Shown: positions 10,795 through 15,589 of the stretch, one piece after another | How the letters are laid out: the number at the start of each line of letters is the position of its first letter | How positions within the stretch are numbered: position 1 is the first letter of the stretch | DNA from: a plasmid | Direction: 5' to 3' (one strand) | Sequence record: NZ_CP154590.1 | DNA: 64,000 nt | The notes under the pieces: model-generated | What the model was told of the DNA's origin: nothing | The model's database searches: none | Seen by the model: only the letters and a program-made list of their open reading frames with translations | Translations under genes and position numbers: made by a program

Positions 10795-11994
10795 ATGTCA
10801 CAGAAAAGCACCTACACCACCTTTCGTTGTAACGATTTCATTTACGACACAATTGTGGTTTTACATCAAAGCGGAGACGGCGATCCTCAGGCCCTGCTCA
10901 TATTCCGCGAACCACAGCGTATGGCCATTCATGATAAAAAACTCATTGCCTTTTATGAGCTTTCAAAAGAAGCCGTGACACTTCTTGATGACCCGATGCA
11001 CGATGCCGCAGAAGTCTTCAACACCATTGCACTGCAACTCAAAACTCAGAGTAAGGCGGTGATAAAACGGCGAATTAAAGCCCTTGTCCTGTTTGTTGGC
11101 GGTGCGTTGATTGCGTCCTCGTTATGGTTCATGGGTACAAGCAACCATACCTCACTTAATTTCAGTAGCACAGAACTGACAATACCTGAAGGGCCTGCCC
11201 CTGTTCAGCCACAACAGTCTGCCGCTATTCAGGGACAACCTAAAATGACGGTTCTCCCGTCGACTGACAATACTGTCAGCCACGCTGTACAGGCTGAATC
11301 CGCCAACATGCAGAATATTATGAAGGAAAGCCATGAATCCTTACCGGCCTCTCCTGCTGAAGCATTGCAGACGGCAGCAACACCGATAACTCCACCCACG
11401 CCAGTAACAACAGAAGCGACGGAACAGTCAGCCCGACAGAAGATGGTAGCCATACTGAAGCGCAGCGCCGATCGGGGTCTGTTCACCATCCCACTCTCAA
11501 CCGGACATGAACGTACGCTGTATGCATTCCTCGACCCAACCTGTGCGGTTTGCAAAAGCATGGAACCAGCAATCGAACAGCTGGCACAAAATTACAACGT
11601 GGTCATTTTCCCTGTATCTGTAGTCAATGACGGTGGCGATGCCGTAGATAAAATCGTTCCGGTATTGTGCGAGAAAGACCTGACTGCCCGTGCTTTAGCA
11701 TGGAGCGACCTTTTTCGCCCGGACGCAGGCATGCAGGTTCCTGGACAGGCGACCTCTCAACAGGTGAGTTCAGACTGTTCCGTGTCGGCTCAAGCCGTAG
11801 TGGCCGTAAACGATACAGGCTTCCGCGCATTTGGTTTCTCAGGTACACCGACAGTGCTGACTGACACAGGCATTCGTCTGGCAACAGGCATGCTGGCCGC
11901 ACCTGATAAAATTGCTCACTTCATGAAAATTACCGATCCAATGACACAAGAACAGGTCGACCGTTTTGTGAGTTCCCTTAGCATCCAGGAGTAA
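10795..11994 (+). CDS. trbB: TrbB thiol:disulfide interchange protein (DsbC-like)
   Basis: 399 aa with thioredoxin-fold active site CAVC (LDPTCAVCKSMEP); position between trbA and trbC. Confidence 0.6.
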   Translation: MSQKSTYTTFRCNDFIYDTIVVLHQSGDGDPQALLIFREPQRMAIHDKKLIAFYELSKEAVTLLDDPMHDAAEVFNTIALQLKTQSKAVIKRRIKALVLFVGGALIASSLWFMGTSNHTSLNFSSTELTIPEGPAPVQPQQSAAIQGQPKMTVLPSTDNTVSHAVQAESANMQNIMKESHESLPASPAEALQTAATPITPPTPVTTEATEQSARQKMVAILKRSADRGLFTIPLSTGHERTLYAFLDPTCAVCKSMEPAIEQLAQNYNVVIFPVSVVNDGGDAVDKIVPVLCEKDLTARALAWSDLFRPDAGMQVPGQATSQQVSSDCSVSAQAVVAVNDTGFRAFGFSGTPTVLTDTGIRLATGMLAAPDKIAHFMKITDPMTQEQVDRFVSSLSIQE

Positions 11995-13285
11995 CCCTTG
12001 ACTGCTCCCAGCCCTGAAGAACGGGGATTCCCACTTCAACGAGCCGAACCTAAGCCGCGTGATGCGGTTCAGGATTTACAGGCTCTCCATGGGCTAACAC
12101 TGCCAGCCCGGCAGCTTTTATATTACGGGCCGCGTTGATATCACGATCATGGTCTGCCCCGCATTCAGGACAGAGCCACTGACGAATATCAAGAGGCATG
12201 TTTTTCATGGTAAAGCCGCAACAGCTACAACGTCTGGAAGAAGGGAAATACTGGTCGATAGCGACAACGCTACGCCCTGCCCATTCCCCTTTGTACTGTA
12301 GCTGGCGAACAAGTTCGCTCCAGCTTGCGTCAGCTATCGCTTTTGACAGCTTTGGGTTGCGGATCATGTTTTTCACCTTAAGGGATTCGACGCAAACAAC
12401 TTGGTTTTCGTTAATCAGTTTGCGGGACAACTTATGCAGGTTATCCATCCGGCAATCGGACATTTTCGCGTGGAGTTTGGCGAGCTTTAAGCGGGCTTTG
12501 GCACGATTCTTTGAGCCTTTTTTCTTCCTGCTTAACATGCGTTGCTGCAAAGCCAGTCGCTTCGCATATTTAGCCGTGTGGCGTGGATTGCTGGTTTTGA
12601 ATCCGCTGTCGGTGACGAACAAATCTTTTAAACCAACATCAATGCCGACCGTGGAAACGGTAATCGGCAGTGATACAGGTTCAAACTCGCAAAGACAGGA
12701 TACGAAATATCGTCCGGCGGCATCTTTGGTGATAGTGACAGTGGATGGCGCAGACGGCAACTGACGGCTCCAGCGCACATATAACGGCGCCTTGCTCTTT
12801 GCCATGTACAACTTGCCGTCACGATATTTAAACGCGCTCGCAGTGAACTCAACCGCCTGCTTGTGGCGTTTGCTTTTGAAGGCTGGATATGCGGCTCGTC
12901 CGGCGAAGAAGTTAGCAAAGGCCATTTGTTGGTGGCGTAGCGCCTGTTGCATGGGTACGCAGGAAACGTTATTCAGCCAGGCGAATTCTGGCTCTTTTTT
13001 CAGTGCAGTTAATCGCGCGCTGGCTTGTATATAGCCGATCTTTTCCTTTCGCTCGTAGTACGCATCCGTGCGCCAGCGGAGGATGCTGTTATAGACAAAA
13101 CGTACACAGCCAAACGTCTGAGCTAAAAGCTCAGTCTGCTCTGGTGTCGGGTAAAACCGGTATTTATAGGCGCGTTTCATCGTTTCACATACTAAAGAGG
13201 ACAATTTGATTATGCAAAAGGCAGTTAGCCGGAAAACCGCTTCCTTTCCTCCCCGGCCTAAAGGCCGGGGTTTCCCGGAGGCATT
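11995..13285 (-). mobile_element. IS200/IS605-family tnpB-only element (IS1341-type) inserted in the trbB-trbC intergenic region
   Basis: Occupies exactly the gap between trbB stop (11994) and trbC RBS/start (13289). Perfect subterminal hairpin CCCCGGCC-TAAA-GGCCGGGG at 13251-13270, in the position of the left end. No Y1 tnpA present. Confidence 0.55.
12050..13204 (-). CDS. tnpB: TnpB (OrfB) RNA-guided endonuclease-type transposon protein, IS200/IS605 family
   Basis: 384 aa; N-terminal MKRAYKYRFYPT signature; RuvC-I (IDVGLKDL), RuvC-II (VCVESL), zinc finger CSCCG..CPECG and RuvC-III (DHDRDINAARNI) all intact. Confidence 0.85.
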   Translation of the reverse strand: MSSLVCETMKRAYKYRFYPTPEQTELLAQTFGCVRFVYNSILRWRTDAYYERKEKIGYIQASARLTALKKEPEFAWLNNVSCVPMQQALRHQQMAFANFFAGRAAYPAFKSKRHKQAVEFTASAFKYRDGKLYMAKSKAPLYVRWSRQLPSAPSTVTITKDAAGRYFVSCLCEFEPVSLPITVSTVGIDVGLKDLFVTDSGFKTSNPRHTAKYAKRLALQQRMLSRKKKGSKNRAKARLKLAKLHAKMSDCRMDNLHKLSRKLINENQVVCVESLKVKNMIRNPKLSKAIADASWSELVRQLQYKGEWAGRSVVAIDQYFPSSRRCSCCGFTMKNMPLDIRQWLCPECGADHDRDINAARNIKAAGLAVLAHGEPVNPEPHHAA

Positions 13286-13288
13286 CTG

Positions 13289-15589
13289 ATGAATAATACG
13301 CCCGTAAATCAGGCGCTAATGAAGCGCAATGCCTGGAATTCCCCTGTTCTTGAGCTTATGCGCGACCACCTGCTGTATGCCGGAATTATGGCTGGAAGTG
13401 TGGTGGCGGGTTTTATCTGGCCACTCGCCATACCGCTCTTTCTTTTGCTGACCATAGTGGCCAGCATCAGCTTCGGTACCCACCGCTGGCGCATGCCGAT
13501 GCGAATGCCAGTCCACCTCAATAAAGTAGATCCGTCTGAAGACAGGAAGGTACGACGCAGTTTTTTCAGAGCATTTCCCTCACTGTTTCAGTACGAAACA
13601 ACGCAGGAAAGCAAAGGTAAGGGGATATTCTACATTGGCTATAAGCGAATGAATGATATCGGACGCGAGCTGTGGCTCACCCTTGATGATCTGACCCGCC
13701 ATGTAATGTTCTTTGCCTCGACCGGTGGCGGGAAAACCGAAACCATCTATGCGTGGATGCTCAATTCATTTTGCTGGGGACGGGGATTCACCTTTGTTGA
13801 CGGCAAGGCGCAGAACGACACTGCACGTACCTGCTACTATCTGGCTCGCCGCTTTGGGCGTGAGGACGATGTGGAGTACATCAACTTCATGAACAGCGGC
13901 ATGTCCCGCAGTGAGATGATCCAGAACGGAGATAAAAGTCGGCCACAGTCTCACCAGTGGAACCCCTTCTGCTACAGCACTGAGGCCTTTGTGGCTGAGA
14001 CGATGCAATCAATGCTGCCGACCAACGTACAGGGTGGAGAATGGCAGTCCAGAGCTATTGCAATGAACAAGGCGCTGGTCTTTGGCACAAAGTTTTACTG
14101 TGTCCGTGAAAACAAAACCATGTCATTGCAGTTGCTCCGCGAGTTTATGCCGCTGGAGAAACTGGCCGGGCTTTACTGCCGTGCCGTGGATGATCAGTGG
14201 CCAGAAGAAGCTGTCTCTCCGCTCTATAATTATCTGGTAGACGTACCGGGTTTCGATATGGCCACCGTGCGGCAGCCTTCAGCCTGGACAGAAGAGCCGC
14301 GCAAGCAGCACAGCTACCTGACGGGCCAGTTTCTGGAAACCTTCAACACATTCACAGAAACGTTCGGCAATATCTTCGCTGAGGATGCCGGCGACATCGA
14401 TATTCGTGACAGTATTCACAGCGACCGCATACTCCTGGTGTTGATCCCAGCCATGAACACGTCGCAGCACACAACCTCTGCACTGGGGAGAATGTTTGTT
14501 ACCCAGCAGAGCATGATCCTGGCCCGGGACCTTGGACACAAGCTGGAGGGACTGGACTCAGAAGCGCTTGAAATCACCAAATACAAAGGCAAATTCCCCT
14601 ACATGAATTATCTCGATGAGGTGGGAGCCTACTACACTGAGCGAATAGCCGTTCAGGCTACACAGGTACGCTCTCTTGAGTTTGCACTTGTAATGATGAG
14701 TCAGGACCAGGAGCGCATTGAAAATCAGACCTCAGCGGCCAACGTCGCAACCCTTATGCAGAACGCAGGCACCAAAGTCGCCGGAAAAATCGTGAGTGAT
14801 GATAAAACGGCAAGAACAATCAGTAATGCTGCAGGGCAGGAAGCCCGGGCGAATATGGTCAGCCTGCAGCGGCAAGACGGTCTCATTGGCACTTCCTGGA
14901 TCGATGGTGACCACATCAATATCCAGATGGAGAACAAAATCAATGTGCAGGACCTGATTAAGCTACAACCCGGTGAGAACTACACAGTGTTTCAAGGTGA
15001 TCCAGTTCCAGGAGCATCTTTCTACATCGAACCTCAGGATAAAACATGCAATGCCCCCGTCATTATCAATAGATATATCACGATTAACCCACCGAATCTT
15101 AAGCAACTGCGAAAACTTGTCCCACGAACAGCACAGCGCCGTCTGCCGGCAGCGGAGAACGTCAGCAAAATCATTGGTGTACTTACAGAAAAACCCTCGC
15201 GCCGGCGTAAAGCGGCCAGAACTGAACCCTGGAAGATAATCGATACCTTCCAGCAGCGGCTGGCCAATCGGCAGGAAGCACACAATCTGATGACAGAATA
15301 TGACATGGACCACGGAGGACGGGAAGAAAACCTCTGGGCAGAAGCGCTGGAGATCATCAGAACAACCACTATGGCGGAACGAACAATCCGGTACATCACA
15401 CTCAATAAACCTGAGTCAGAATCGACGGAAGTAAACGCTGAAGAAATTCAGCTGGCGCCGGATGCAATATTGAGGAACCTGACACTTCCACAACCTGCCT
15501 ATGTTCCTCCTGCCCGGCACAGAAACGAGCCATTCTTCTCCCCAAAACAGACAAGTTCACCACAGCCAGATATGGAATGGCCAGAGTGA
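13289..15589 (+). CDS. trbC: TrbC type IV coupling protein (DotL/IcmO-like, VirD4 family)
   Basis: 766 aa; N-terminal TM helices; Walker A FFASTGGGKTE; size matches R64 TrbC. Confidence 0.75.
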   Translation: MNNTPVNQALMKRNAWNSPVLELMRDHLLYAGIMAGSVVAGFIWPLAIPLFLLLTIVASISFGTHRWRMPMRMPVHLNKVDPSEDRKVRRSFFRAFPSLFQYETTQESKGKGIFYIGYKRMNDIGRELWLTLDDLTRHVMFFASTGGGKTETIYAWMLNSFCWGRGFTFVDGKAQNDTARTCYYLARRFGREDDVEYINFMNSGMSRSEMIQNGDKSRPQSHQWNPFCYSTEAFVAETMQSMLPTNVQGGEWQSRAIAMNKALVFGTKFYCVRENKTMSLQLLREFMPLEKLAGLYCRAVDDQWPEEAVSPLYNYLVDVPGFDMATVRQPSAWTEEPRKQHSYLTGQFLETFNTFTETFGNIFAEDAGDIDIRDSIHSDRILLVLIPAMNTSQHTTSALGRMFVTQQSMILARDLGHKLEGLDSEALEITKYKGKFPYMNYLDEVGAYYTERIAVQATQVRSLEFALVMMSQDQERIENQTSAANVATLMQNAGTKVAGKIVSDDKTARTISNAAGQEARANMVSLQRQDGLIGTSWIDGDHINIQMENKINVQDLIKLQPGENYTVFQGDPVPGASFYIEPQDKTCNAPVIINRYITINPPNLKQLRKLVPRTAQRRLPAAENVSKIIGVLTEKPSRRRKAARTEPWKIIDTFQQRLANRQEAHNLMTEYDMDHGGREENLWAEALEIIRTTTMAERTIRYITLNKPESESTEVNAEEIQLAPDAILRNLTLPQPAYVPPARHRNEPFFSPKQTSSPQPDMEWPE

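Follow-up and report, generated by a model that had tools for sequence, protein, structure and literature searches.

Why does a plasmid transfer operon carry, between two of its own genes, a gene that runs against it? The plasmid record NZ_CP154590.1 raises this question in the stretch of 64,000 nucleotides analysed here, hereafter called the window. Its plus strand encodes an IncI-like transfer operon of type IVB, and in the gap between trbB and trbC the minus strand encodes a TnpB protein. The DNA at positions 11998-13288 is very probably a non-autonomous, tnpB-only insertion sequence of the IS1341 type in the IS200/IS605 family, with an apparently active TnpB and guide RNA (omega-RNA). It is an ordinary, already known kind of mobile element.

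Ends, target and contents of the element

A megablast search with window positions 11500-13800 against PLSDB returned both filled and empty trbB-trbC junctions. The identical insertion was found in 11 PLSDB plasmids with 99.7-100% identity, and their hosts are Enterobacter hormaechei, E. cloacae, Citrobacter freundii, C. portucalensis, C. tructae and Citrobacter spp., i.e., at least five named species in two genera. An empty junction was found in C. freundii pRHB30-C04_3 (L001), which belongs to the same replicon cluster and whose flanks are 99.5% identical and contiguous; a second relative, pH12-1, has the same empty junction. The empty sites of these two plasmids, both with the rep_cluster_1444 backbone, fix the ends to the base. 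With a slash marking each boundary, the empty site of pRHB30-C04_3 reads ...CCAGGAGTAACCC/ATGAATAAT... (with a longer right flank, ATGAATAATACG), and the window reads ...TAACCC/TTGACTGC...GGAGGCATTCTG/ATGAATAAT... or, in a longer rendering, ...CCAGGAGTAACCC/TTGACTGCTCCC...CCCGGAGGCATTCTG/ATGAATAATACG.... Because the flanks are contiguous in the empty relatives, the inserted DNA is exactly 11998-13288 (1,291 bp, minus strand), with its left end (LE) at 13288 and its right end (RE) at 11998 in the orientation of tnpB. No target base was duplicated or lost, and the element has no terminal inverted repeats.

An initial annotation of this sequence had placed the element on the opposite strand, precisely in the trbB-trbC gap at 11995-13288, and had proposed a comparison with uninterrupted junctions. 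The filled and empty sites agree with this strand and position, since the element follows the trbB stop and immediately precedes the trbC ATG, antisense to the operon; the right coordinate is exact, but the left one is 3 nt too far left. The same comparison yielded the target. On the top strand of the element, the pentanucleotide TTCAT (13289-13293, minus strand), the reverse complement of the trbC start ATGAA, directly precedes the LE and would also serve as the target-adjacent motif (TAM) of TnpB.

The element consists of tnpB, 108 nt of LE and 52 nt beyond the stop codon. This leaves no room for tnpA, and none is annotated on plasmid p5-20710, which matches the window with 100% identity across the 2.3-kb junction region, in PLSDB gene tables that are themselves incomplete; the element had thus rightly been described as tnpB-only. 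A TnpB without TnpA, the lack of terminal inverted repeats and target-site duplication, insertion 3' of a conserved pentanucleotide and subterminal hairpins at both ends place it in the IS1341 group. Independent copies repeat the ends CAGAATGCC...GCAGTCAA and are 1288-1310 bp long.

TnpB, its guide RNA and unoccupied sister plasmids

The tnpB gene occupies 12050-13180 on the minus strand (376 aa plus stop). The longest open reading frame (ORF), 12050-13204, has 384 codons; the ATG at 13180 is the start both in homologues and in the RefSeq annotation for identical plasmids. Pfam matches of the protein were OrfB_IS605 (5e-25), Cas12f1-like_TNB (1e-23) and HTH_OrfB_IS605 (6e-22), and the NCBIfam model guided_TnpB, for the RNA-guided endonuclease TnpB family, scored 359.8 bits against a cut-off of 100. 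Leaving aside an AI-designed nuclease (9YYG), the top solved structures were those of ISDra2 TnpB (8H1J, 8BF8 and 8EXA; E about 1e-75, residues 10-375). In the alignment with 8H1J (E = 8e-75) the catalytic motifs line up, with the RuvC residues D181 (GIDVG), E265 (VCVES) and D347 (HDRD) in the numbering of the 376-aa protein, and the zinc-finger cysteines C318/C321 and C337/C340 form two CxxC pairs. No frameshifts or internal stops were found in tnpB, and the RuvC triad and zinc finger are intact, as the initial annotation had stated. The dN/dS ratio was about 0.11 (dS 0.58-0.75, dN 0.06-0.08) against three relatives of 84-87% identity, namely the copies from a Salmonella plasmid, the E. coli CFT073 chromosome and a Serratia plasmid. 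This ratio argues that the TnpB family is kept as a functional protein, and we infer that the TnpB encoded here is an active nuclease. Inspection of the LE by eye suggested TTGCAT-N17-TAGTAT as a putative tnpB promoter, and no recognisable Shine-Dalgarno (SD) sequence was found ahead of the tnpB ATG.

The 3' part of tnpB together with the RE forms the predicted omega-RNA scaffold (11998-12160, minus strand). Within it, a RAGATH-18-like fold spans 12028-12093 and the RE hairpin occupies about 12007-12026; the terminus of the element is ...GTCAA. The Rfam model RAGATH-18 (RF03064) matched 12028-12093 on the minus strand over its full length with 29.8 bits (E = 0.0045), below its gathering score of 44.9, which makes this a resemblance and not membership. 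An alignment of the last 200 nt of 39 non-redundant relatives gave a consensus structure of 36 pairs in eight helices, with compensatory double changes in 19 of the 36 pairs; the RE hairpin is helix 8 and contains three covarying pairs. Paired cells reached 95.8%, as compared with 34-42% when the 3' partners were slid by 1-3 columns, and on each of five measures none of 500 column shuffles matched the observed value. Since the covariation exceeds both the shuffles and the slid controls, the tnpB 3' part and the RE encode a conserved structured RNA, as would be the case for an omega-RNA scaffold, and this RNA is presumably expressed. Covariation, Rfam resemblance and position all support the omega-RNA region that had been assigned to the tnpB 3' end, with its guide template in the trbB 3' end. 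Rfam matches near the LE (mir-145, HgcC and sot0042) were far under threshold and were dismissed as chance.

Directly 3' of the RE lies the guide template GGGTTACTCCTGGATG (about 16 nt; 11982-11997, minus strand), which consists of the last trbB codons, the stop and the spacer and is unique within the window. At the occupied site the guide sequence is preceded by GTCAA and not by a TAM. In the empty plasmids L001 and L155, a perfect match to the guide is directly preceded by TTCAT. As far as sequence goes, unoccupied sister plasmids therefore offer what TnpB would need to cleave them, and homing of the element, or interference against empty sister plasmids, is plausible by analogy. The expectation of cleavage comes from studies of ISDra2 and Geobacillus TnpB (e.g. 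bioRxiv 10.1101/2023.03.14.532601).

We propose that a Y1 HUH TnpA acting in trans, and not encoded by the plasmid, would insert the element by single-strand peel-and-paste 3' of TTCAT, whereby it would land antisense, with the trbB stop region on one side and the trbC start codon on the other, without target duplication. The guide of the omega-RNA would then be copied from the trbB 3' flank. The complex of TnpB and omega-RNA would spare the occupied site, with GTCAA in place of the TAM, and would cut the unoccupied trbB-trbC junction of sister plasmids of the same replicon, where TTCAT adjoins the perfect match. Such cleavage would make it more likely that the element is kept or copied, or that the rival plasmid is lost. 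The insertion would also exchange the native trbC ribosome-binding site (RBS) for a GGAGG in a stable LE hairpin, and trbC would come to need read-through of the antisense tnpB.

The left end, trbC and insertion at start codons

The upstream gene, trbB (10795-11994, plus strand), encodes a protein with a thioredoxin fold, and it keeps its own, intact TAA stop, 3 nt ahead of the element. The downstream gene, trbC (13289-15589, plus strand), encodes an intact DotL-like coupling-protein homologue of 766 aa and is as long as its counterparts in the empty-site plasmids; the LE terminus directly adjoins its ATG. TrbC matches NCBIfam TrbC_conju with 1057 bits as well as Pfam TraG-D_C, and the neighbouring TrbA has a DotM_C domain; these matches fit the earlier naming of TrbC as the coupling protein.

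The LE (13181-13288, minus strand) is non-coding. Its predicted fold has -30.1 kcal/mol (z = -4.3) and consists of an upper hairpin, CCCCGGCC/GGCCGGGG, at 13252-13271 and a lower stem in which 13239-13244 pairs with 13277-13282 (GCTTCC/GGAGGC). Both stems are kept in the consensus structure of 24 LE variants, the lower one (GCYTCC...GGAGGC) with partial covariation. Read in the sense of the operon, the LE terminus is GGAGGCATTCTG followed directly by the ATG, and its purine run and spacing of 7-8 nt are conserved in 26 of 26 LE variants. In the window this terminus places an SD-like GGAGG (13277-13281, plus strand) 7 nt before the trbC ATG, predicted to be paired in the lower stem. The initial annotation had described a hairpin abutting the trbC RBS. 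The hairpin is indeed present, but the RBS is not the native one: the native GGAG (11987-11990) now lies 1.3 kb upstream of the trbC ATG, and the GGAGG in its place belongs to the element. Donation of an SD sequence as an adaptation was considered and is weakened by the structure. Because GGAGGC forms the 3' arm of the conserved lower stem, it is probably there for the sake of the LE structure, and it may be occluded in the mRNA. A candidate outward promoter in the LE (plus strand, 13184-13213) was also dropped, as it is not conserved across LE sub-variants and the scan sites were no commoner than in shuffles.

Transcription of trbC must traverse 1.3 kb of tnpB in antisense. Terminator-like hairpins with T-runs were seen on the operon-sense strand inside the element at 12975-12993 (followed by CTTTTTTC), 12100-12114 and 13021-13037, and a consensus scan counted six terminator-like sites over both strands against 2.3 +/- 1.6 in shuffles. 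Because the native RBS is displaced, terminator-like hairpins lie in the path and base pairing is predicted for the new SD-like motif, reduced expression of trbC is plausible, and the initial annotation had raised such polarity as a possibility; expression is probably reduced rather than abolished, although the size of any polar effect is something that we can only infer from these features. Three plasmids of rep_cluster_1444 (p5-20710, pRHB30-C04_3 and pH12-1) are typed as 'mobilizable' by MOB-suite despite a full I-type tra/trb/pil set and a shufflon, and the typing seems to under-call this kind of type IV secretion system.

How far the site is typical was examined in relatives gathered from genome, metagenome, viral and plasmid collections, with the LE located by alignment. 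Within the subfamily with LE CAGAATGCCTCCGGGAAACC..., NTCAT stands directly 5' of the LE at all of the approximately 27 independent sites (TTCAT in the majority; CTCAT, GTCAT and ATCAT in a few each), and every RE finishes with ...GTCAA. The ends have a common geometry, with cleavage site, 18-nt linker and GC-rich hairpin at the LE, and hairpin, 9 nt and TCAA at the RE. At 21 of 26 independent sites the opposite-strand ATG opens an ORF of at least 87 aa, as compared with 21.6% for other ATGA sites in the same loci (binomial p = 2e-10). Recognisable true N-termini at these sites include those of TrbC (twice), YbhB (annotated, E. coli B2 strains), TraW, TraX and a phage head-processing protein, together with a GrxB-like protein and signal-peptide proteins. 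Rebuilt unoccupied sites have an ATGA stop/start overlap in 11 of 27 cases. About 20 of the 27 follow a co-directional ORF at a distance of at most 60 nt, which indicates that the elements of this family live antisense inside operons; four of their insertions are in conjugation operons. The operon-sense RE terminus TTGA supplies the upstream TGA stop at ATGA/TAATG overlaps, as for trbI in a Klebsiella plasmid (L146) and a DUF2726 gene in L148.

The trbB-trbC junction itself has been entered twice. In plasmid L002 of Salmonella Saintpaul, an element of 85% identity (TnpB 87%) is oriented as in the window: the LE directly adjoins the trbC ATG, and the RE lies in the trbB end. The backbone of L002 is distant from the window (33% identity in TrbC and 36% in TrbB), and closer relatives of L002 (H60 and H61) have uninterrupted junctions; the two elements are thus, on sequence comparison, separate insertions at the same junction. 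In L002 (2501-2520) the trbB frame runs 20 nt into the element before a stop, and in the rebuilt empty site trbB and trbC overlap by 14 nt, so the insertion altered the TrbB C-terminus. With the Salmonella trbB-tnpB-trbC region as query, matches were obtained in 286 Klebsiella plasmid records in all.

Further relatives were noted in other settings. In K. pneumoniae pKp_SB61170_1 (L146, 1501-2799) a related element lies antisense between trbI and traW of an F-type transfer operon, and in Serratia and Yersinia F-type plasmids (L148 and L152) related elements lie antisense between a DUF2726 gene and traX. On the E. coli CFT073 chromosome (L147, 829.4-830.7 kb) an 85%-identical copy between bioA and ybhB abuts the ybhB start codon; CFT073 is the one E. 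coli genome in which this site was inspected. Because ybhB is on the minus strand, the top strand of that element would be on the lagging-strand template, as is reportedly the case for IS608. Of 5,426 complete E. coli genomes, 393 carry matching elements, Nissle 1917 and E2348/69 among them, and 348 of 396 places are chromosomal. The E. coli plasmid p655Rt_p0111 (L149), which carries phage portal, head and lysozyme genes, has tnpB antisense between the portal and head-processing genes (1801-2957), with the downstream gene starting about 113 nt past the tnpB ATG; the family is also found on many IMG/VR viral contigs, so the habit extends to phage late operons. A 47-bp miniature element, TTCAT/CAGAATGCCTCCGGGAAACCCCGGCCTTTAGGCCGGGGAGCAGTCAA/, lies 575 bp downstream of a full-length copy in L056 (3759-3805). 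It joins the LE and RE termini with one common hairpin; its position is again a start codon, here that of a 192-aa ORF on the opposite strand, and its 25-nt flank is common to 16 metagenome or viral loci. In a sister subfamily (L010, L011, L014-L016, L019, L023, L025, L027 and L029), TnpB is approximately 80-85% identical and the RE has the same GTCAA. Its LE, ..GCGCGTAAAGCCTCGCCC.., lies about 110-130 nt upstream of tnpB and its 5' flanks are of the TTGAT or TCAAT type with ambiguous boundaries, which would imply that the TAM differs and that its insertions are not linked to start codons.

Two accounts of the start-codon habit were considered. The lineage with LE CAGAATGCCTCC may be adapted to dock antisense on operon-internal start codons, with ends that limit harm and a guide that hits sister plasmids as a drive or competition weapon, an idea that we regard as tentative and somewhat doubtful. 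Against the ends being adaptive stands the fact that GGAGGC belongs to a conserved LE stem. It is also possible that the pattern reflects survivorship: the 4-5-nt target is the reverse complement of ATGA(A), insertions that spare genes persist, and GGAGG is merely an LE stem arm. Literature on start-codon insertion by IS605/TnpB elements was not found, and absence from the library that we could search is no proof of novelty.

Several points weigh against the proposed active tnpB-only element. A cognate TnpA was not found, and none is annotated on a Yersinia plasmid with several copies of the element in the incomplete PLSDB gene tables. Relatives are usually single-copy, with a median of one per carrying E. 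coli genome, which fits rare transposition or immobility. The RAGATH-18 score stays under its gathering threshold. The conjugation-proficient pH12-1, which was transferred into E. coli C600 by broth mating (PMC7893115), has an empty trbB-trbC junction and is therefore silent on polarity.

That the insertion is strongly polar, with trbC blocked and the occupied plasmids unable to transfer themselves and persisting vertically or by mobilisation, we consider unlikely. It would be in keeping with the plus-strand terminator-like sites inside the element (e.g. 12975-12993 followed by the T-run), the pairing of the SD-like GGAGGC in the -30.1 kcal/mol structure, the loss of the native RBS and the 'mobilizable' label of the occupied plasmids. 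However, the empty-site relatives bear the same label, which is therefore uninformative on the insertion. Moreover, trbC is intact with the length found in the empty-site plasmids, and the identical insertion has reached at least five named species in two genera; relatives are also found at equivalent junctions ahead of traW and traX in F-type plasmids with a conjugative typing, as well as ahead of many chromosomal genes. The presence of the same insertion in 11 plasmids of Enterobacter and Citrobacter argues that the occupied plasmid still spreads. Still less probable is an inert relic, a neutral passenger without TnpA whose TnpB and omega-RNA are unexpressed or inactive. Single copies in most host genomes, the lack of an annotated tnpA on the plasmid and a tnpB ATG without a recognisable SD would suit it, whereas a dN/dS of 0.11 with intact catalytic residues, ends and RNA structure conserved with compensatory changes, and the many independent sites with empty sites in close relatives, which show recent mobility of the family, do not. 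The antisense location in a transfer operon and the recurrence of relatives in tra operons could also suggest a domesticated regulator, i.e., a TldR-like RNA-guided repressor or an antisense RNA module controlling the trb operon. This appears very improbable, since the catalytic triad is intact, unlike that of TldRs, the transposon has kept both ends intact, the element is absent from near-identical plasmids, the guide is plain flank as in any mobile copy, and relatives adjoin unrelated genes.

A mobile tnpB-only insertion sequence explains the odd gene in the transfer operon as a routine event, and its base-exact ends, TAM and guide provide a direct basis for cleavage and conjugation work. 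The association with start codons and ATGA overlaps, together with the recurrence in conjugation operons, suggests how single-strand transposons may persist in operons, and the guide is a candidate concrete case of TnpB aimed at competing plasmids. If the docking adaptation were true, the element would live in essential or conjugative operons with little harm and act as a drive or a plasmid-competition weapon.

Comparison with known systems

TldRs, nuclease-dead repressors derived from TnpB that have lost the RuvC catalytic residues and the transposon ends, are set apart from the element by its intact catalytic triad and both of its intact transposon ends. The IS1341-group tnpB-only elements of E. 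coli and Salmonella are 1.25-1.39 kb long, with subterminal hairpins and a TCAA right cleavage site (PMC9956272). The element here shares the single tnpB, the size range, the hairpins and TCAA with them, and the 'InsQ/TnpB' copy of CFT073 is 85% identical to it. The main text of that study is silent on start codons, plasmids and target sites. The copy here differs in residing on an I-type conjugative plasmid and in having a guide that matches sister plasmids.

ISDra2 TnpB of Deinococcus radiodurans (8H1J and 8EXA) has the same order of HTH/WED followed by RuvC with an inserted zinc finger, and its D-E-D residues align with those found here. The guide RNA of ISDra2 likewise lies at the tnpB 3' end and the RE, with the guide taken from the 3' flank. 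ISDra2 differs in carrying tnpA, which the element lacks, and in the length of TnpB (408 aa versus 376 aa). Its TAM and target is TTGAT, as compared with TTCAT of the element.

IS608 of Helicobacter pylori has no inverted repeats and no target duplication and inserts 3' of a short specific sequence, as does the element. It is the paradigm for Y1 TnpA, which it encodes itself, whereas none is known for the element, and its target is TTAC. The RE of IS608 ends with TCAA, and about 18-19 nt separate its LE hairpin from the cleavage site, a likeness to the ends of the element. IS200 of Salmonella belongs to the same family but has only tnpA. Its left-end hairpin can affect transcription and translation near the end of the element; in the element here, the LE structure faces the start codon of a host gene.

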